A DNA stretch of 64,000 nucleotides, from assembly GCA_951406725.2 (NCBI GenBank), contig OX597831.1, forward strand, positions 62,310,001-62,374,000, given 5' to 3'. Of the stretch, positions 18,901 to 55,928 are shown piece by piece. The DNA is from Octopus vulgaris (Eukaryota). The translations under genes and the position numbers were made by a program. The first letter of the stretch is position 1; each line of letters starts with the position of its first letter. The notes under the pieces were generated by a model that saw nothing but the letters and a program-made list of their open reading frames with translations, was not told the origin of the DNA and did no database searches.

Positions 18901-19812
<912 letters not shown>

Positions 19813-27182: not shown

Positions 27183-27378
27183 ATTTATTTTATAGAAGGA
27201 GCTTCTACAGGACTAGAACTGTTTCATTCAGAAGAAATCATCAGGAAGCTTCCTGATGATTTCTTCTGAATGTAAAAAGTTCTAGTCCTGTAGAAGCTCC
27301 TTCTATAAAATAAATTAATTTAATCTGCTATGTATTGAGTACCTTATTTACTGTGGTTAACCCGGACTCAACCCAGGA

Positions 27379-27380
<2 letters not shown>
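27183..27380. mobile_element. Solo PLE pseudo-LTR fragment of the same family as the intact element, as a fold-back with two opposed HHR copies
   Basis: Near-perfect palindrome 27183-27315 centred on ggaagcttcc. The right arm continues to 27380, matching the reverse complement of ~34696-34770. Embedded in (TA)n. Confidence 0.85.
27200..27250 (-). ncRNA. Minimal type I hammerhead ribozyme (intact copy of the palindrome)
   Basis: agcttc-CTGATGA-tttc ttct gaat-GAAA-cag ttctagtc ctg-TA-gaagct. The + strand copy (27247-27298) has GAAACAG mutated to GTAAAAAG. Confidence 0.82.
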
Positions 27381-27434
<54 letters not shown>

Positions 27435-27435
<1 letters not shown>

Positions 27436-27637
27436 GTGACCGCGTGTGTACCGTTGGCGAATGTTTTCCTCCGTCTTCCCTTCTTTGGATCTTTCCTTTT
27501 CCTATGTTTCTGAAGAAGAGCTCCGCTCGAAACGTTAAACCCCCCTTCTTCCCTTCCTTCCTGAGCGTCCAATAATACTATATTTCTTCCACGTCCTCGC
27601 GTTGTTGTGTTTTCTCTTTCTGTTTTCATGTTTGGAT

Positions 27638-27642
<5 letters not shown>
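27435..27642 (+). mobile_element. ~200-bp (TA)n-embedded repeat with HHR-like motif (27503-27575)
   Basis: tgttt-CTGAAGA-a-gagc tcc gctc-GAAA-cgtt...agcg-TC-caata. Homologous to 18950-19152 (-) and 55706-55900 (+). Confidence 0.7.
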
Positions 27643-27719
<77 letters not shown>

Positions 27720-27726
<7 letters not shown>

Positions 27727-29333
27727 CCATGTCTGTGTGTTCTCAATGCACGCTCAAACCTCTGGACCAATATGTACAATACTTGGGGTACATGAATAAT
27801 TTGACCTTGGAAAAATATTATGGTCTTGAATCTTTTTCTTTATTTTATTAAAAATAAATAAATATTGCTTTATACATAAAGATTCACTTCTTCAAATCGT
27901 TTTCTGAAATTCCTGTCTTTGGCATCTTGACGTAGAAACTAAGTTTCAGCTTACCGTATTTGAATTCCTTACCAGCTATTTGCACACACGTGTATGTATA
28001 CATCATTATAACTATGACGATTTCTAATAAAGGATTTCAAAAGATACTTTCATGTGACCAAAAATATTTCATACGCAGATAATTTCCCTGATTTTCCCAT
28101 ACATATTTCGGACATTTTTGGAATACATCACCTTATTAACACATGGTGTTTAGTTGTGAGGATTTCAAATAAAAAGGATTTGTAAAGGTACTTTCATTTT
28201 TTATATTTTACAGATTTTTTCTCCCCGAATTTGGATGGTCATAACTTTTGCTTAAATTTTACGGCTACGGTTAAGGGTTGTATACAAATGCACAAACGCA
28301 CAAAACGGAGAAAACGAAACAGATATGGACGACTTCTTTCGAAACACTCTCCAGCCGTGAACAGTTCTCAAAAATAATCCCCGATTGTCTTCCCCAAAAT
28401 TCTATATGCTCGGAATCTACATAGTCCGAAGAATATTTGTAGACAATTGCATTTAGAAATATCCATTTTCCTGAAATTTAAGACACAATGAAGTGGACTC
28501 TGGTGAATTTACCGACAATCCTACCCCCACCTCTTCCTAAAACACTTCCCCCAAACAATTTGTATATTCGGAATATACTTGATATAACACATATTCGTAG
28601 AACATTTCATTGAAAAATATCCCTTTCTCTGAAATTTATAATGAAACAAATTCGGGTGCGGAGCAGAAATTTAATAAACAAGTCTCAAGAATAGTCTCTC
28701 AAGGTTGTTGAACTTCACTTTGCTTCTCCTTGCTTCTCTCATGGGAAAATATATATACGATGTTCGCGATTTGGAAGCCTCAAGATCTTTTCATTTATAC
28801 ACCAGTTAAAGGACACACCCGAAACAACGTATATTCACAAGCTCTAGATAATTAAACTGCGATTGATTTCCGGATGTATTTCAATATATGTGTTTATACT
28901 GGCGTCATCTGATAGAATCGTCCGCCGGTCTGTTCTTCTCAAATTTATGCATTTGCAGGTTCAACATGTTTCAAATAAGTACTGACAATTGAAGGTAATT
29001 GCAAAGACAAGGAACTACCTGTTTTTTTTAACAATTTTTACAGAGAGAACATTTGACAAAATGTGTTATTCCCCTTAATAATTTGTACCTCAGGTTAATT
29101 ACAGTTGAGAACTGCATATTTCATGGTTCATTCCACTTAGAAATTTAAAAGGCATACTTACATTTCGTTAATTTTCACTAATCAGGGAAACACCGGGTTA
29201 TTAACGTATAAATTTGGTATGTCAGCTATTAGAAGGTAAGACCTGCGTAGATTATATTTCATGTTAGAGATCTAAAAGACCTTTTTGAATTTCATTATCT
29301 AGTTTAACCCGGGCAACGCCGGGTATTTCAGCT

Positions 29334-29335
<2 letters not shown>
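27720..29335 (+). mobile_element. Non-autonomous Helitron-like element
   Basis: 3' hairpin acccgggcaacgccgggt + CTTG (degenerate CTAG), similar to the 19835 terminus. Bounded by (TA)n, with an approximate 5' boundary. Confidence 0.55.
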
Positions 29336-29379
<44 letters not shown>

Positions 29380-29380
<1 letters not shown>

Positions 29381-29767
29381 TATATAGAAGGAGCTTCTAC
29401 AGGACTAGTACTGTTTCATTCAAGAGAAATCTTCAGGAAGCTATTTAACAAGAATTGTATTAGCATTTATACATTTAGGCAGGTTTAAAGGAGTGGTGGT
29501 GGGGGACTTTTTGGGGGTAGGCATAGCGCAAAATATCATACTTGGGGGAGTGGTCAAGGAGTCAGTGGTAAGTTAGATGAAAGAATAGATAAATAAAAAA
29601 ATATAAAAATAAAAAAATTAAAAATATATATAAAAAATATATATATAAAAATATATATATAAAAAAAGGGGGGATAGAGTTATAGGTAAATAAGGAGATT
29701 CTCACTTATACCTATACACACATGTATACGTATCTACACACACATATATATATACACATATATATAT

Positions 29768-29818
<51 letters not shown>

Positions 29819-30262
29819 CACACATACATACATATCTACATACACACATACATACACCCGCCCACATATACAAATTTATACACATGCACATGCCTATACC
29901 TGTCTACACATACACACACGTATATATGCATACACTCACTCCCATGCATGCACGCATACACACATGTATATATATATATATACCCACGACCACACATACA
30001 TATATACACATAAAAATATATATTCATACGCACATACACTCATGCACACACAACACACCTAGTTCCCTATATACACATATTTACACCTATATATACATAC
30101 ACCCACATACACCTATGTACATATATATATATATATATATATACATATACACGCATACATATATATACATGTGTGCACATACATACATACACACATATAT
30201 ACATACACATACACATACACATGTGTACCTATACATACCTACACATACACACATACATACAT

Positions 30263-30297
<35 letters not shown>

Positions 30298-30914
30298 CCA
30301 ATACAGGCCCATTCCCTAATTTTAATTTTATTATCTTCATTTATTACTTTTGTTATCTTTGATCGCTAGAGCTAAGAATCCTGGCAATGGCTGCATGTCC
30401 ATTTGTTTGTCTACTAGAAGGCAAGTACTCATTCCCGCACGCACACTCATTAGCACGTACATTCACCCATTCGTACACTCATACACATACACGTACGCAC
30501 GCGTTATATTCATACATACAAACATCTACATACGTTCACGTATATACACATACGTACTCGTACCTACAGATTCGTGTCTACACTTTAGGAGGCTAGTCTA
30601 TACATATACACCAATAAATATACATATATATATATGTACACACATATACATACACACACACATATATACTCCTACATACAGATACATACCTATATATATA
30701 TATATATATATAAATACATATATATATACATACATACACACATACACACATACATATACACATACATACATACACATATATATACATACACAAACATATA
30801 TACACACATATATATATACATACACACATACACACATACATACGTATACATACATACATACATCCATACATCCATACTTACATGCATTTATACGCATACA
30901 CACACCCATCTATA

Positions 30915-30951
<37 letters not shown>

Positions 30952-31231
30952 TCACACATACATATACAAATCTACGCACACACATACATACATACACGTA
31001 TACACATACACGCACATACACATATACATGCGTACCCATACACGTGCACACACGCACGCGCATCCATATATATACACACACACACATATATATACACGTG
31101 TGCAAGCATACATACATACTCATACGCGCACACATACTTACATATACATATATGCACACACTTACACACATATATATACATACACATATACATGCATACA
31201 TACATATATGCATACATACACACACGCACTC

Positions 31232-31240
<9 letters not shown>
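29380..31240. repeat. Left arm of ~1.86-kb inverted repeat (3' end of PLE)
   Basis: Reverse complement of 34871-36735, including unique islands (the same ORF-track peptides [12 protein letters not shown]... and [12 protein letters not shown]... occur on both strands). Confidence 0.95.
29392..29442 (-). ncRNA. Minimal type I hammerhead ribozyme (PLE 3' pseudo-LTR)
   Basis: Minus strand reads agcttc-CTGAAGA-tttc tctt gaat-GAAA-cag tactagtc ctg-TA-gaagct. Core is intact, stem I is 6 bp, and loop 3 contains the palindrome ACTAGT. Confidence 0.88.
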
Positions 31241-31292
<52 letters not shown>

Positions 31293-31331
31293 CACATACA
31301 TACACATACACATACATACACATATATACAC

Positions 31332-31366
<35 letters not shown>

Positions 31367-31568
31367 TACATATATACACATATACATACATATACATACA
31401 CACACACATACATATATACATATACACTGATACACATACCCATACATATATATATATATATACACACACACATATACACATGCATATACTTATATCACTA
31501 CATACTCACATATATAAACATATATACATATACACACATACATATATACATGTACATACACATACGTA

Positions 31569-31602
<34 letters not shown>

Positions 31603-32224
31603 CATATATATATATATATATATATACATACACACACACACACATACATATACACATATACATATATACATATCTATATAAATGATACACATATATACAC
31701 ATACACACACACATATATATATACATTCATGCATATACATATACAAGTATACATACACATACATACACACACACGCGCACACATACATATACACACACAC
31801 ATATACAAATACATACATACACACATACACACACACATATATATATATATACATACATGTACACATATACATATATATATATATCAACAAGGGAGGGTAA
31901 AGTTAATTAGTTATTAGTCAATTTCATCAAGTGTTCAGTATGTAAAGGGACCATTATTATTTTGAGTAAACAATGTTAGAGGGAAAAAAATTCTCTAAGT
32001 AGTGGAAGAGGCTTAAAACTTTATTGGCTGCTATTTCTAGAAAGTTTAGTATGTGGCAACGTAATTTATTTTATTTTACTAAGCCCTAATTATATAATAT
32101 TTTATTTTATACATACATACACATACATAAGCACATACATTTACACATACATATGCATATACATATATACACATATACATACAAACACATATACACATAT
32201 ACACACACACACACACATACAAGC

Positions 32225-32265
<41 letters not shown>

Positions 32266-32505
32266 AATATATGTACATATATATTTTTTTACATGCATAC
32301 ATACACACACACACACATAATACATGCGTATATTCCTACTGTACCCATGCATTTCTATACATATATACATACATACGATACACATATACAAGCGTGCACA
32401 TATAATATGTGAAAGGTCTTAGGAGAAAAGGTAATCGGGGGTGCTAGGGGAACATTGGGGTTGGGGGGGTTGTAGGGGGGGGGTTGTAGGGGGGGGGGGT
32501 TGTCA

Positions 32506-34647
32506 TCAATCAGGTTGCCGGGTAGGTCTATAGTTCTTGTAGTTCGCATACTTCTTATGCATGCAATTTGGGGAGTGTTCTGAAAATTTGTTAAGGAGAG
32601 GGCCTTTGGCGAACAAGATCTCTAGGCTCTCTGATATGCATAGGTCACAGCAGGTATGTCCTCCTGTGTACGAGCGCGCCTTCTGTAGTAGTTTCCACTT
32701 GGTCTTGAAGGGGATTGAGTTCCTTTTAAGGTACCAGATGTGGGCGGCGAGGGTAGTTTGGTTGGATTTATCCTGTCGCCGGAACGAGTGTGTATGTGCG
32801 TACCAGCGGGTCTTAAAGCTGTTTGACGTCATTCCAATGTAGGATTTACTTTTATCGTCAAGGCCTGATCTTACCTCGCATTTATATACTAGGTCCCTCT
32901 GTAGGCAGTTGTTGTTGAGGGGGCAGGTGGTTTTATCATGGCAGTTGCAGTTGCTATCGGACGTTGGATGGGCCCCGGAGAAAGTAGATATGTTAAGTTT
33001 TTTCACATTGTTGTTGGCTAGGTTCCTGGCTAGGTTGGGCGTGGTAGAGTAGGAGAGTCTAATAGTGTTCTTATTTAGGATAGTGTAGTACTTATGTTGG
33101 GTGGGGAAGTGTTTCTGTAGGAGAGTGAAAAAGATCTTAGCTACAGGTGTAGCGACCTCACGGTTGAAGGGGGAGTTGTACCAGCTAATGTGTCTTCGTC
33201 TATTTTTCCTGGGTTGGCGTGGGGCTATACTAGTGTAGGTAATCTTATCTTTAAAACCACTGCGGGCCAGGGCCTCGTTGTAATAGGGGGCTGCGGCCTT
33301 AAAGATATCTTCCGTGGCGGACAGGCTAGAGATTCTAATTGAGACACTTTTTACTAGGTTATCTAATATATTTCTGGGGTGGTTGGAATTGATATCTATA
33401 TATCTAAGGGATTCATTTGGTTTGTGGTACGGGTAATAAAGTGAGGTTTTTAAGTCGAGGGTGACATCTAGGAAGTTAGCCTTTGTTAAGTTGGATTCTA
33501 GGGTAATCCTAAGGCCTAAGTTTTTAAAGAAGGTGTGAAGATTTTTCCGGAACCCATCCGTGGTCCTGGGGTTTATATTGTGGAGGGCGAAAAGGCCGTC
33601 ATCTCGGTAAAGACCACCGGAGAGGCCTGTGAATAGGGTTTTCAGCCTATGGAGGATGAAAAGGCCCACTAGGTCACTTATTTCAGCAGAGTCGTTAGCA
33701 CCCATGCTGACGTCGAAGGGGGTCACAGATTTTTTGTTGATCCAGTGGGATCCGTCATAGAAAAGAAAAGTCTTACGTGCGTGGAGGATCACATCTTGCT
33801 CGGCCTCGGTGATGGTGGAGGACCTCCTGGCGAAGTTAATCGCATTGATCAGCAAGCTCTCCGATATAGAGGCGTAGTAATCCTCGATATCCAGTTGTAG
33901 GAATCGGGTGTTGCTTTTATTTGGTAAATCCCGGAACCAAGTTATTGCCTCGGAGGTCCTATTCCAGAGTGGAAGGGGTGAAGCTTCACGCATTTTTGGT
34001 AAAATCCTGTCCAGGATCTTCTTGCTGACGGATCCGATGTCAGACTTGGTTGGGTTAATCAAACGGACCGACGGTTTATTTTCGAAATGGTCTTTGTGGT
34101 CTTTCAGGGTGAAGTGTGGGGACTTCACCCTCAGGGGTTCTGTTCGGTCGTCGATTTTAAGGGAGGTGGCAATCTCTTTCCCGGCCAAGTTGGTTTCAGT
34201 TAGCGCTGCGTCGTCTACTTTCTTGTATTTAGCTGTGATGGCGTTATCGGCTAGTCTATTATAGGTATCCGGAGTCACCGCGTAAATATTTTTTGTCTTG
34301 TCCGAAGGGACATGGAGGTTCTGGGAGCTTTTCATTTTCGAAAGCTTCGCATTCAGTTCCGTTTGGAAAGGTAAGTTGACTCTCCTGAATTTGATGTTTT
34401 TTATCATGAGGAAGAGGTCTTCTTCAAACGGTTCAAGTAGGCTGTTGGTAGGAGGGGCCTTATTTGATTTGAAGCCGTACTTATCATTACTGGTAGATGC
34501 TACATCAGGGTTGTCGAAGAAGAAAGATCTCCATCGAATTCTTTTGATGAACTCATCAGTCCGTCTAATGAGGGCTTTTTGGTACTGTTTCCTTGGTGGG
34601 ATAGTAATGTTCTTCAGGGAAGTGTCGAGGTCGATTCTTGTCAGCAT
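32506..34647 (-). CDS. Penelope-like element ORF: reverse transcriptase + C-terminal GIY-YIG endonuclease (probably Hydra-clade PLE), 713 aa, uninterrupted
   Basis: RT motifs LQLDIEDYYASI, FDVSMGANDSAEISDLVG, GLYRDDGL and ANFLDVTL. Linker CNCHDKTTCPL (CxCx5C). GIY-YIG LVYKCEV...SYIGMT...FKTRWYAH with CDLC and LLNK. No stops or frameshifts. Confidence 0.95.
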   Translation of the reverse strand: MLTRIDLDTSLKNITIPPRKQYQKALIRRTDEFIKRIRWRSFFFDNPDVASTSNDKYGFKSNKAPPTNSLLEPFEEDLFLMIKNIKFRRVNLPFQTELNAKLSKMKSSQNLHVPSDKTKNIYAVTPDTYNRLADNAITAKYKKVDDAALTETNLAGKEIATSLKIDDRTEPLRVKSPHFTLKDHKDHFENKPSVRLINPTKSDIGSVSKKILDRILPKMREASPLPLWNRTSEAITWFRDLPNKSNTRFLQLDIEDYYASISESLLINAINFARRSSTITEAEQDVILHARKTFLFYDGSHWINKKSVTPFDVSMGANDSAEISDLVGLFILHRLKTLFTGLSGGLYRDDGLFALHNINPRTTDGFRKNLHTFFKNLGLRITLESNLTKANFLDVTLDLKTSLYYPYHKPNESLRYIDINSNHPRNILDNLVKSVSIRISSLSATEDIFKAAAPYYNEALARSGFKDKITYTSIAPRQPRKNRRRHISWYNSPFNREVATPVAKIFFTLLQKHFPTQHKYYTILNKNTIRLSYSTTPNLARNLANNNVKKLNISTFSGAHPTSDSNCNCHDKTTCPLNNNCLQRDLVYKCEVRSGLDDKSKSYIGMTSNSFKTRWYAHTHSFRRQDKSNQTTLAAHIWYLKRNSIPFKTKWKLLQKARSYTGGHTCCDLCISESLEILFAKGPLLNKFSEHSPNCMHKKYANYKNYRPTRQPD

Positions 34648-34778
34648 TTTTCTTGGTGATGGTTATAAGGGCACTAGGGTGTGCTAAGATATGTAGGTCC
34701 CGGGTTGATTCGGGGTTAACCACAGTAAGTAAGGTACTCAATACATAGCAGAGTAAAATTAATTTATTATATAGAAGG

Positions 34779-34829
34779 AGCTTCTACAGGACTAGTACTG
34801 TTTCATTCAAGAGAAATCTTCAGGAAGCT
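34779..34829 (-). ncRNA. Minimal type I hammerhead ribozyme (PLE 5' pseudo-LTR)
   Basis: Identical to the 29392-29442 motif, ~130 nt upstream of the ORF ATG in sense orientation. Confidence 0.88.
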
Positions 34830-34870
34830 ATTTAACAAGAATTGTATCAGCATTTATACATTTATACATT

Positions 34871-35376
34871 TATATATATGAGTGCGTGTGTGTATGTATG
34901 CATATATGTATGTATGCATGTATATGTGTATGTATATATATGTGTGTAAGTGTGTGCATATATGTATATGTAAGTATGTGTGCGCGTATGAGTATGTATG
35001 TATGCTTGCACACGTGTATATATATGTGTGTGTGTGTATATATATGGATGCGCGTGCGTGTGTGCACGTGTATGGGTACGCATGTATATGTGTATGTGCG
35101 TGTATGTGTATACGTGTATGTATGTATGTGTGTGCGTAGATTTGTATATGTATGTGTGAGTGTGTATATATATATATATATATATATACATATATATAGA
35201 TGGGTGTGTGTGTATGCGTATAAATGCATGTAAGTATGGATGTATGGATGTATGTATGTATGTATACGTATGTATGTGTGTATGTGTGTATGTATATATA
35301 TATGTGTGTATATATGTTTGTGTATGTATATATATGTGTATGTATGTGTGTGTATATGTATGTGTGTATGTGTATG

Positions 35377-35434
<58 letters not shown>

Positions 35435-35823
35435 TATGTATCTGTATGTAGGAGTATATATGTGTGTGTGTATGTATATGTGTATATATATATATATGTA
35501 TATTTATTGGTGTATATGTATAGACTAGCCTCCTAAAGTGTAGACACGAATCTGTAGGTACGAGTACGTATGTGTATATACGTGAACGTATGTAGATGTT
35601 TGTATGTATGAATATAACGCGTGCGTACGTGTATGTGTATGAGTGTACGAATGGGTGAATGTACGTGCTAATGAGTGTGCGTGCGGGAATGAGTACTTGC
35701 CTTCTAGTAGACAGACAAATGGACATGCAGCCATTGCCAGGATTCTTAGCTCTAGCGATCAAAGATAACAAAAGTAATAAATGAAGATAATAAAATTAAA
35801 ATTAGGGAATGGGCCTGTATTGG

Positions 35824-35858
<35 letters not shown>

Positions 35859-35971
35859 ATGTATGTATGTGTGTATGTGTAGGTATGTATAGGTACACAT
35901 GTGTATGTGTATGTGTATGTATATATGTGTGTATGTATGTATGTGCACACATGTATATATATGTATGCGTG

Positions 35972-36002
<31 letters not shown>

Positions 36003-36304
36003 GTACATAGGTGTATGTGGGTGTATGTATATATAGGTGTAAATATGTGTATATAGGGAACTAGGTGTGTTGTGTGTGCATGAGTGTATGTGCGTATGAA
36101 TATATATTTTTATGTGTATATATGTATGTGTGGTCGTGGGTATATATATATATATACATGTGTGTATGCGTGCATGCATGGGAGTGAGTGTATGCATATA
36201 TACGTGTGTGTATGTGTAGACAGGTATAGGCATGTGCATGTGTATAAATTTGTATATGTGGGCGGGTGTATGTATGTGTGTATGTAGATATGTATGTATG
36301 TGTG

Positions 36305-36359
<55 letters not shown>

Positions 36360-36735
36360 GTGTATATATATATGTGTGTGTAGATACGTATACATGTGTG
36401 TATAGGTATAAGTGAGAATCTCCTTATTTACCTATAACTCTATCCCCCCTTTTTTTATATATATATTTTTATATATATTTTTTATATATATTTTTAATTT
36501 TTTTATTTTTTTATTTTTTTATTTATCTATTCTTTCATCTAACTTACCACTGACTCCCTGACCACTCCCCCAAGTATGATATTTTGCGCTATGCCTACCC
36601 CCAAAAAGTCCCCCACCACCACTCCTTTAAACCTGCCTAAATGTATAAATGCTAATACAATTCTTGTTAAATAGCTTCCTGAAGATTTCTCTTGAATGAA
36701 ACAGTACTAGTCCTGTAGAAGCTCCTTCTATATAA
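34871..36735. repeat. Right arm of ~1.86-kb inverted repeat (inverted PLE 3' copy)
   Basis: Matches 29380-31240 in reverse complement with only a few substitutions and (TA)n length changes. Confidence 0.95.
36673..36723 (+). ncRNA. Minimal type I hammerhead ribozyme (inverted PLE arm)
   Basis: agcttc-CTGAAGA-tttctcttgaat-GAAA-cagtactagtcctg-TA-gaagct read directly on the + strand. Confidence 0.88.
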
Positions 36736-36812
36736 GGAGGGTCAGGGTGAGGGTAGAAGCAAACAGACACACAGAAACACGCACAGACAAACTGCCGTTT
36801 ATATATAGAGAG

Positions 36813-46469: not shown

Positions 46470-47275
46470 GAAATTTTTTTGATCTTCGTCTACCCTTATT
46501 TTGAGGGGACGGAATGTTTCGCCTTTGTATAACCTACTACAGCTGCATGGGATGGAATACACGCAGTTTTTGGTCGTTTTCACTTCTATTGGTAGTTTTA
46601 CTCAAAGGACATATTTGCTAAGTGAATACTGTCCTGATGTCATATGGGCTGCATATCTCTTGTATCTTTTCAGAGAGGCCTTCCAGTTTGGGTAGACAGA
46701 CTTTGGACAGTTTATCGGTTTCATCTCATCTTTTCTTCATAATATGAGTAGATAGCATGCTTTTGGGGTATTTAGTGCGCTTAATAGATTGTTTAAGCTT
46801 GATCATTATTAAGTGTGTATCACGATTGCTACTTATATTATATGCATGATGTTTTAGGCACTGATCAATCCCTTTCTTTACACTGTGTGGATGGTGGGAA
46901 TTGAAGTTTAGGTATCGTCTAGTGAAGGTCGGCTTGCGGTATACGGATACCCTGTATCCATACTTGGTGCATGTTATTAATACGCTCATGAATGCTAGCT
47001 GATTGTCTCCTTCTTTTTCCATTGTGAACTGTATGGATGGATTTATTGAATTCACATGATCTAACAGCACTTTGACAGACATCTTCTCGGAGAGGACAGA
47101 GTATGAAGTTTTTATCAACATAGCTCAACCATAGGGTTGGTTTTAGTGGTGTTGATCCCGAAGAGAAATTCGCAAAGTATCCCATGTATATATTGGCTAT
47201 TATCAGTGATAATGGCGAACCCATTGCTAAACCCTCTTCTTGTCGATATATATCAGGAAGGTATATCAGTCGAAA
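46470..47275 (-). pseudogene. Degraded Penelope/Poseidon-type PLE (RT, thumb, GIY-YIG)
   Basis: YRQEEGLAMGSPLSLIIANIYM, NSINPSIQFTMEKE, VYRKPTFT.RYLNFNSHHP and NCVYSIPCSCSRLYKGET, with frameshifts and stops. Confidence 0.88.
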
Positions 47276-48016
47276 CGTTAACAACAAACAAGATGAGGAC
47301 AAATATCCATCAAATGTAAGTCATGTACATAATTACTCATCTCTTAAATATAGAACTGTAATATATATATCTGTGTGTGTGTGTGTGTGTGAAAGGAAAA
47401 AATGGAGGAATTTATATATGGAAACATTAATTATTTGAAACAATTGCAATTTCAGACAATATCAAAGTCATAGTACTTACGCTCGTTTCCATGCTAAAGT
47501 TAATAATAAAAAAAAATTCGAGACTGATAATGAATATAGCTGAACGTTAATGCTGACATCTCTTTAAGAGGTATTTATATCCTCGAAATAATTCATATAT
47601 ATATACATATACAAATACACTCGCACATTCACACGCACACACATATGTATGTAGGCATGTATATACATATATATATGTTGATTTGTTCTTCTGTCTCAGG
47701 ACACAATTTGTTTTGTCATAGTCAATAATGAATCTAATGTGCTTTGCTATTTATATACTCTGGAGTATTGGCGCATGTGAAGTATGAAAACAATAGAAAT
47801 ACCTAGAACACAAATACAATCAATTTGCTTCGCAAGAGCGCTTACAAATCGGATAACACCATTAAAGTTTTAACGTAAAATATTACCTACGGAAATTAGT
47901 TGCTATACTAATTACGTGGCTAAATATTTAGTTGTTATATAGAAAAAAATATTTTGTTCAAAGCAAATACAGAGAACATTCGACCAGGTTGATATGATTT
48001 AGAATTAGATCGTGGA

Positions 48017-54611: not shown

Positions 54612-54642
54612 AATATAATATGTGAAAATTATTCGGCAGCAA

Positions 54643-54705
54643 TAATAAAACTCCGAGTTTCGGATTCCGGGTCGAAAACCCACGCAGCCATCTCTTCAGT
54701 TATCA
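54643..54705 (-). ncRNA. Hammerhead ribozyme motif adjacent to (TA)n
   Basis: tgataa-CTGAAGA-gat...gggt tttcg accc...atcc-GAAA-ctcggag-TT-ttatta. Stem III resembles the 3604 motif. Confidence 0.6.
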
Positions 54706-55150
54706 GGCATCGAAAAAAAATGCTATGGAAATACCATTAAAGCAAAGGGAAATTACTGTGTGATTGATCGTTATTACGACAAAAGTGCTATTAGAATGAC
54801 CGCTAAGTAAGGGGAGGGTGTAAAATTAAGGGAGTATAGATGATCATATTAATCGGGTAAGCACGCATGTTCATACATATACATGCGCTCGCACACCCAG
54901 GTGCATGCGCCTATATGTATATACTCATCCACACTTTCTTGAAACACACACATGCTCACCCACACATAAGCCAAAAAATATAGACATACCCGCATACACG
55001 CTCGCACACAAACAGAAACATGTGTGAAAAATGACATAACTTAAAAATCAGTTTCAGCTCAACTACTAATCTTAAAAATATAATCGCACACAACACGCAA
55101 AAACCACAATATGAATAGATAAAAATTTGTGCCCGTAAAATGGAGCTTGC

Positions 55151-55591
55151 ATGTCCGAGACCATCATTTATGAAGCCACCGTCGACTCTATATCCACTAA
55201 GGACCCGATTTCGACGAAGAAATACGTAGGCCTTACAGAGGGTAATTTCAAGGCCAGGTTCAACAATCTCACCTTGTGCTTCAGGCACTGGGATAAAAGG
55301 AAAACGGTCAAATTATCCAGTCATATATGGTCCTTAAAAGATAAAAGCTACATGGTCCATTGGAAGAACTTAGCCAAGTGTAAGCCCTACACCAATGGCA
55401 GTGGAAAGTGCGATCTTTGTGATATGGAAAGATGGCTTATCTGGAAAAGCAGCTTAGACCCCACCACATGTCTGAATTCAAGAAATGAACTTTTCGGATC
55501 ATGTCGTTATGTGGCTAAATATTTATTATGTTTCTCCCCACCACCCAAATTCCGAGCCTTATACGTAGAGAATACAAGAAAATTACCATAG
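55151..55591 (+). pseudogene. 5'-truncated PLE: GIY-YIG endonuclease fragment of the same clade as the intact element but a different family
   Basis: IIYEATV...KYVGLTEGNFKARF...LSSHIWSLK...KPYTNGSGKCDLC...LNSRNE aligns by eye with the C-terminus of the 713-aa ORF. Confidence 0.85.
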
Positions 55592-55705
55592 GATTTGAAA
55601 ATGGAGAAAAGTTCTACAATTTTTATTTCGAAATATTATTCAAACTTAATTTTTCTGAAATTTATTTGCAAACATTTCGATATCCATAAATATATATAAC
55701 TACAA

Positions 55706-55900
55706 GTGAATCATTGGCAACTTTTTTCCTCCGTATTCCTTTTCTATTCGACTATCTTCTGTTTCCTGTTTCTGAAGAAGAGCTTTGCTCGAAACGTAAA
55801 ACCATCTTTCTTTCTTTCCATGAGCGCATCCACGCGTTGTTGTTCTTACCACATCCACGCGTTGTTGTTTTTATTTTGTGTTTGTTCTTCGTTTTTTGGG
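55706..55900 (+). mobile_element. HHR-like short repeat directly downstream of the GIY-YIG fragment (possible 3' pseudo-LTR)
   Basis: CTGAAGA-a-gagc ttt gctc-GAAA at 55772-55794. Homologous to 27435-27642, with the cleavage triplet apparently lost. Confidence 0.6.
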
Positions 55901-55928
55901 GGTGGGGGATTTACTCTTTATATATATG

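Follow-up and report, generated by a model that had tools for sequence, protein, structure and literature searches.

A Penelope-like element (PLE) with the motifs of the Hydra clade was found on the minus strand of the 64-kb stretch of Octopus vulgaris DNA analysed here (the window, in which all positions are given). In this element 3,070 nt separated the stop codon from the core of the 3' hammerhead motif. The explanation that we consider probable is that the element represents a high-copy family with a 3.07-kb 3' UTR composed mostly of simple repeats, and that these repeats are moved as passive cargo in the element RNA. Both edges of the repeat region belong to a high-copy PLE family, as was observed in contigs of other public runs.

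Organisation and classification of the insertion

Read 5' to 3' on the minus strand, the insertion comprised an inverted truncated copy (36735-34871), a 5' pseudo-LTR (pLTR), the ORF, the 3' region, the terminus at 29375 and a (TA)n run (Table 1). The full PLE unit (29375-34864) was 5.49 kb in length and its ORF ended in a TGA stop codon (32508-32506, minus strand). Three identical copies of a type I hammerhead motif were present, at 29436 (-), 34823 (-) and 36679 (+); a motif scan from the stop codon to 29436 revealed no hammerhead motif. At its right end (36736-36760) the insertion stopped 5 bp short of the family terminus, in a G-rich, non-TA flank with no visible target duplication. The left flank (29300-29338), just before the (TA)n target, contained a short GC-rich hairpin that we take to resemble a Helitron-type 3' end.

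Table 1. Features of the PLE insertion, in window coordinates, with the basis on which each was delimited.
Feature	Position	Strand	Basis
(TA)n run, insertion target at the 3' end of the element	29338..29374	none	sequence
3' pLTR, type I hammerhead motif, core start 29436 (predicted)	29375..29477	-	99% identical to 34762-34864; motif scan
Island 1, pyrimidine-rich, G-poor 3' UTR segment immediately upstream of the hammerhead repeat	29478..29712	-	contig loose ends, composition
Repeat block 1, TG/TA on the sense strand	29713..30295	-	TRF 29713-30293
Island 2, unique core then cryptic repeat	30296..30598	-	99-100% copy in the inverted arm
Repeat block 2, 1.29 kb, containing the 5' truncation point of the inverted arm (31240)	30599..31885	-	TRF 30599-31884
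Island 3, AT-rich, single copy within the window	31886..32104	-	blast
Repeat block 3; ~30 ORF-proximal bases joined to the linker in other runs	32105..32405	-	TRF 32109-32325, contigs
C-rich linker 3' of the stop codon, without hammerhead motif	32406..32505	-	motif scan, composition; high summed depth in 4/4 runs
Intact ORF, 713 aa: RT (RWR, DKT, YRDD), CxCx5C linker, C-terminal GIY-YIG with CxxC and CxH	32506..34647	-	motifs, alignment
5' UTR and 5' pLTR, hammerhead core 34823, 8-bp stutter at the inversion junction	34648..34870	-	motif scan
Inverted 5'-truncated second copy: part of block 2, island 2, block 1, island 1, hammerhead 36679	34871..36735	+	alignment

The single ORF encoded an RT followed by a C-terminal GIY-YIG domain (YRDD at 347, LVY...YIG at 586-605). 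It contained RWR at 38, with RW[KR] in all 20 rows of the protein alignment, and DKT in place of DKG at 116; there was no GxK[FY] match, this motif not being conserved. The CxCX5C linker was located at 567-575 and the endonuclease CxxC and CxH motifs at 667-670 and 695-697, respectively. A Pfam search of the ORF returned no relevant family, and the element was assigned to the Hydra clade by its predicted motifs and by alignment, not by Pfam. The clade, as outlined in PMC8557442 (Craig et al. 2021), shares with this element the single ORF with RT and C-terminal GIY-YIG, an RWK-type motif, DKT, CxCX5C, CxxC and CxH, as well as a canonical hammerhead near the 3' end and insertion into (TA)n. In that account an inverted 5'-truncated copy at the 5' end is the usual form of PLE insertion (PMC8557442), and one is recorded for the Hydra-clade element Penelope-13_HM, as here. 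The hammerhead motif had stems I and III laid out as in File S2 of PMC8557442, and its predicted fold was no better than that of shuffles (z 0.34). Among the 150 of 256 Rfam matches listed for 17000-60000 at E≤1 there was no hammerhead family; these matches, all below the gathering score and nearly all of them miRNA models on repeats, were taken as chance.

In contrast to these shared features, the unit exceeded the typical Hydra size, which is generally <3 kb: the 27 families listed for the clade span 1.1-3.0 kb, complete ones 2.1-2.7 kb, and none of the Hydra rows in PMC8557442 mentions internal repeats. Hydra-1_Obim, at 2,507 bp and with a hammerhead at 2403 unlike in sequence to that of the octopus element (PMC8557442), is by its size and hammerhead another family.

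The relatives recovered with the ORF numbered 249 at E≤0.001, the best at 53% identity. The C-terminus was reached by 76 of 78 related metagenome loci (37-44% identity); in 50 of these a hammerhead followed 44-515 nt downstream of the stop codon. When these 50 were collapsed at 80% identity into 39 families, the distance from stop codon to hammerhead was 46-515 nt (median 129 nt), compared to 3,070 nt here, and periodic sequence downstream of the stop codon made up at most 29% in the 50 loci, compared to 72% here. The 26 loci without a hammerhead comprised 16 with <350 bp of downstream DNA and 10 with at most 24% periodic sequence. The C-terminus was also present in 11 of 15 genome_contigs loci, all 11 with a loose hammerhead core 90-193 nt downstream. 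This set of relatives is biased against long repeat UTRs, since short-read contigs would break in such a UTR. Hydra-type PLE loci (L079-L093) were also present in contigs labelled as bacterial genomes or MAGs, and are likely host-animal DNA in bins. The 44 pattern matches in viral_contigs included no relative.

Other PLE remnants were present in the window. An older relic of a second Hydra-type family (54612-55590) had a hammerhead on the minus strand (54699) that ended in (TA)n. Before this hammerhead came a pyrimidine-rich island and ~250 bp of cryptic repeat, with the same polarity as here (40 CA and 11 TG on the plus strand); the relic was joined head-to-head to a plus-strand endonuclease fragment with 38% identity to aa 571-677. 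This one relic copy hints that repeat-bearing UTRs may be wider than one family. A 15-bp match, noted by eye, between 32400-32414 and the relic end at 54612 was absent from the best blast rows and was set aside. A tiny inverted insertion of a sister subfamily (27183-27388, 89.5% to 34689-34829) consisted of a pair of hammerhead ends facing each other within (TA)n, the terminus of one being the longer 'tail' form. Related ~200-bp units with a hammerhead-like core were situated by (TA)n-type runs at 27435-27640, 18952-19150 and 55700-55910, with an 87.5% match between 27379-27723 and 19206-18871; another family, in the form of solo pLTRs or retrozyme-like elements, is their likely source. On the minus strand, 46726-47320 contained frameshifted RT fragments with a GSPLS motif and no Pfam hit, which we take to resemble a canonical Penelope/Poseidon-type PLE.

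Repeat content of the 3' region and of the inverted arm

The initial annotation had described the sequence between the stop codon and the terminal hammerhead as mostly imperfect repeat, and the analysis agreed: 75% of 29700-32410 fell in 14-mers at most one base from the (TA/CA)n register (82% at most two bases); the figure was at most 2.6% for 20 mononucleotide shuffles and 8% for the rest of the window, beyond the insertion. Its description of the cargo as ~2.7 kb of (TA)n-rich DNA stood with respect to the repeat-dominated scale. However, the cargo was mainly a TA/CA mosaic, in which perfect (TA) of at least 10 bp accounted for 22 runs and 426 of 2,711 bp (16%; longest run 33 bp), and the full distance from stop codon to hammerhead was 3,070 nt, since the repeats are flanked by a 100-bp linker and a 235-bp island. 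The insertion held 3,240 of the 7,828 bases of the window in (TA/CA)n register, in a window that was chosen for this insertion. As there was no exact internal duplication of at least 25 bp with a non-pure pattern, a satellite array or an internal tandem copy was ruled out as the source of the 3' region.

The four non-repeat segments differed in composition. The linker and island 1 were 71-73% pyrimidine with 4-5% G, compared to 40% and 54% pyrimidine for islands 2 and 3, respectively; the UTRs of the relatives had a median of 57% pyrimidine, so that the linker and island 1 bear no particular resemblance to those UTRs.

The inverted arm (36735-34871) was the reverse complement of 29380-31240 (1,865 and 1,861 bp, respectively), with seven substitutions, three of them beside indels, and nine indels of 1-13 bp, all in TA/CA runs. 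The earlier statement that the outer ~1.5 kb is copied almost base for base into the arm was thereby upheld, 1.54 kb of the arm lying within 29700-32410. The accompanying statement that the region is not local slippage was too strong, as the arms already differ by nine indels in repeat runs. The near-exact arm, with indels confined to repeat runs, indicates recent copying and slippage since then; run lengths are likely to be still slipping after insertion. The arm is an ORF-less truncated copy that delivered repeats and was cut within block 2. A single inverted arm shows copying in that insertion alone, and not family membership.

The repeats were polar. TG was on the sense strand in 6/6 sub-blocks of the 3' region, which are not independent of one another, and the sense strand had 448 TG and 58 CA dinucleotides. 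In the host, 16 of 33 repeat blocks were CA-rich on the plus strand and neighbouring blocks agreed in polarity in 7 of 15 pairs. Such polarity would fit a model in which the repeats are functional, the sense UG/UA RNA folding into long G-U rods that join the ORF and the 3' end, and A-to-I editing before reverse transcription turning TA to TG. The predicted fold was -0.39 to -0.46 kcal/mol/nt for the sense strand, compared to -0.12 to -0.15 for the antisense strand and -0.19 for a piece of the ORF; five of the seven substitutions in the arm were A/G on the sense strand, and the older relic (54612-55110) had the same polarity upstream of its hammerhead. However, folding of this kind follows from purine-pyrimidine alternation alone, and dinucleotide-preserving controls cannot separate the two. 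Three of the five A/G substitutions adjoined indels and their direction is not fixed, host arrays are likewise polar within a block, and 39 related families function with UTRs of <520 nt. A functional role of this kind is judged to be very unlikely.

Edges of the region in contigs of other runs

Eighteen of 24 runs listed, from seven studies and under three organism labels, held 0.57-0.78 of the sampled words of 29380-34870; the highest may be the source of the window itself. Runs X19-X24 (word share ≤0.06) were left out. Contigs of four public runs (X1, X3, X16 and X18) were mapped onto the repeat-poor interval 32264-34900, in which 30/30 bins were covered in all four runs, with high summed depth over the linker (32406-32505) in each. 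In X1 the summed depth rose from ~4,000 near the ORF start to ~120,000 near the ORF end and >1,000,000 in the pLTR. Depth that climbs 5' to 3' through the ORF to the pLTR is the pattern of a high-copy, 5'-truncated family.

The junction of linker and repeat was spanned in three of the four runs, two of them under other organism labels. The repeat start (32403) was covered 30-31 letters from the contig ends in 27 contigs of X16, seven of X18 and one of X3; in X1, among the matches listed, no contig covered this position away from its ends. All spanning contigs had C where the window has T, and thus do not represent the allele of the window. At the other edge, the loose ends behind 34864 were the start of island 1 in X1 (eight contigs), X3 (two contigs) and X16 (21 contigs, with variant letters), and no such loose end was present in X18 among the matches listed. 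Joints in contigs from 32376 to ~34860 were rejected as repeat matches, having sides of just 20-22 letters. These two junctions, present in other runs, make both edges of the region features of the family. The proposal that the region is part of the element was accordingly borne out at both edges, where contigs of other runs continue into element sequence and differ in letters from the window. Ahead of 34762 and 34689 the loose ends ran into (TA)n in X1, X16 and X18, as they did near 34760 in X3. Together with the left end of the insertion they confirmed that the element inserts into (TA)n, to which the right end of the insertion is an exception.

The same junctions bear on the view that the region is ordinary host flank, in which an ORF copy lacking its end has a solo pLTR, unrelated to it, downstream, with the arm explained by inverted duplication at the DNA level or by misassembly. 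The window contains many solo hammerhead repeats (27183-27388 and others), and (TA)n is missing at the right end of the insertion; both are consistent with this view. It is largely refuted by the many contigs of other runs in which island 1 adjoins the pLTR and repeats adjoin the linker; in addition, there are real substitutions between the arms, and the arm ends at most 5 bp from the element's own 3' terminus. We regard host flank as an extremely unlikely explanation.

A reading that deserves more weight, while still rather unlikely, is that only the edges are family-wide. In this reading the UTR of the family would contain short internal repeats, and the 2.7-kb middle would be specific to a sub-lineage or donor copy, through recent capture of host DNA or local expansion, and would have been copied once into the arm. 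Summed depth dropped within block 3: in the last bin (32264-32351) it fell ~10-fold in X1 and X16, 6-fold in X18 and 3-fold in X3; the repeat letters 32264-32327 were skipped in mapping, which makes the drop ambiguous. Searches of little power recovered islands 2 and 3 nowhere outside the insertion. Searched against the 78 metagenome loci, the islands gave no match beyond one low-complexity hit; for island 2, searched through spurious reading frames (again of low power), one candidate gave no hit and three weak matches (30-42% identity) were not copies. The composition of islands 2 and 3 differs from that of the edges, and PLEs are reported to carry host DNA between terminal repeats (PMC6431247). 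Against this reading, runs carrying three different organism labels agree on the base, just after the linker, at which the repeats begin. Furthermore, small assemblies (runs of 97-305 million letters) held 0.70 of the sampled words, more than the modelled ceiling of 0.53-0.63 under even sampling. In these calculations ORF, linker and pLTRs made up 0.46 of the 5,384 distinct 31-mers of 29380-34870, and Markov models gave a chance presence of block words of 0.06-0.17 when 10-30 million bases of simple repeat were assumed. With low-complexity words left out of the index, 0.70 of the remaining, high-complexity words would come from ORF, linker, pLTRs and island 1, and the excess would be nearly gone; the excess therefore favours a family-wide middle only weakly.

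Probable origin and consequences of the repeat cargo

If the repeats are passive cargo, as we consider probable, an ancestral short UTR would have taken in ~2.7 kb of compound microsatellite and two non-repeat islands, likely once; a template switch or TA-run recombination is the most likely route, and the captured microsatellite would then have grown by slippage. The linker and island 1 are alike in composition and together, at ~360 nt, are within the range of the relatives, and so are likely the two halves of the older UTR; islands 2 and 3, unlike the edges in composition, may be captured host DNA. It is a hypothesis for PLEs that the hammerhead marks the 3' end of the RNA and the start of reverse transcription. 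If so, in target-primed insertion into (TA)n the sequence upstream of the hammerhead would be reverse-transcribed first, the cargo before the ORF, and truncated copies would deliver repeats alone. As a result of 5' truncation, many copies would then lack the ORF and retain the end repeat together with part of the cargo, and run lengths would drift on after insertion.

Penelope elements with microsatellites are already known from shrimp, and the new part is the scale. In penaeid shrimp, internal SSRs are shared among Penelope copies that moved recently (>98% identical) and lengthen after transposition (PMC7878876, Yuan et al. 2021), and TEs were proposed there as carriers of SSR expansion; the passages covered do not give the clade, SSR position, size or polarity, whereas the octopus SSRs fill the interval from stop codon to hammerhead on a kb scale. 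Chlamys PLE families are likewise lengthened by tandem repeats, six at the 3' end as here, but belong to a green-algal clade with an N-terminal endonuclease; the repeat unit is not stated in PMC8557442 and 'microsatellite' is absent from its supplement. PLEs and Terminons resemble the octopus element in carrying host cargo between PLE terminal repeats, a 4-kb module being cited in PMC6431247. Their cargo consists of genes, whereas the octopus family, which is genome-wide and encodes an endonuclease, carries simple repeat that is non-coding. The role of retrotransposons as a source of microsatellites has been reviewed (PMC3812793). No report of a kb microsatellite 3' UTR in a Hydra PLE was found in the literature searched, with most subscription papers, Repbase, Dfam and bioRxiv supplements outside its scope. 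Recently active Penelope insertions of Octopus vulgaris have a mean of ~5.5 kb (1,795,539 bp in 329, clades mixed; PMC13282606, Table 1), near the 5.49-kb unit and far above known Hydra lengths, which is only a lead.

The cargo had 10 (TA) runs of at least 20 bp in 2.7 kb, compared to 35 in the 56.6 kb outside the insertion, and this 6-fold higher density means that potential targets are delivered. No nested insertion was found in either copy of the repeat region. It is likely that PLE cargo adds, in kind, to the microsatellite richness of the genome. Summed depth does not equal copy number; if an incidental contig depth of ~30-40 is taken as single-copy, with a several-fold overcount allowed, our guess is that the copies extending to the ORF end number from hundreds to a few thousand, at most some Mb. 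By rough inference the cargo would then account for no more than a few percent of all simple repeat, for a genome size of a few Gb. A stronger proposal is a self-feeding loop, in which structured, polar UG/UA cargo was shaped by A-to-I editing and reverse transcription in this and perhaps other Hydra families of the host, every insertion, even a truncated one lacking the ORF, adds (TA)n sites, and PLEs built a sizeable share of the compound microsatellites; we hold this to be quite unlikely.

Annotation would mask copies of this kind as simple repeat, assemblies from short reads would be interrupted within them, and consensus building would end after the ORF. Microsatellite markers designed within such copies would be multi-locus. 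In a long-read assembly, the islands could serve directly as probes to measure how much of the simple repeat is mobile. With respect to the question 'How did TEs carry SSRs?', as posed in the shrimp paper (PMC7878876), the element offers a concrete route, in that the DNA from stop codon to hammerhead is likely copied first. If the cargo is copied first, even truncated insertions would deliver repeat DNA.
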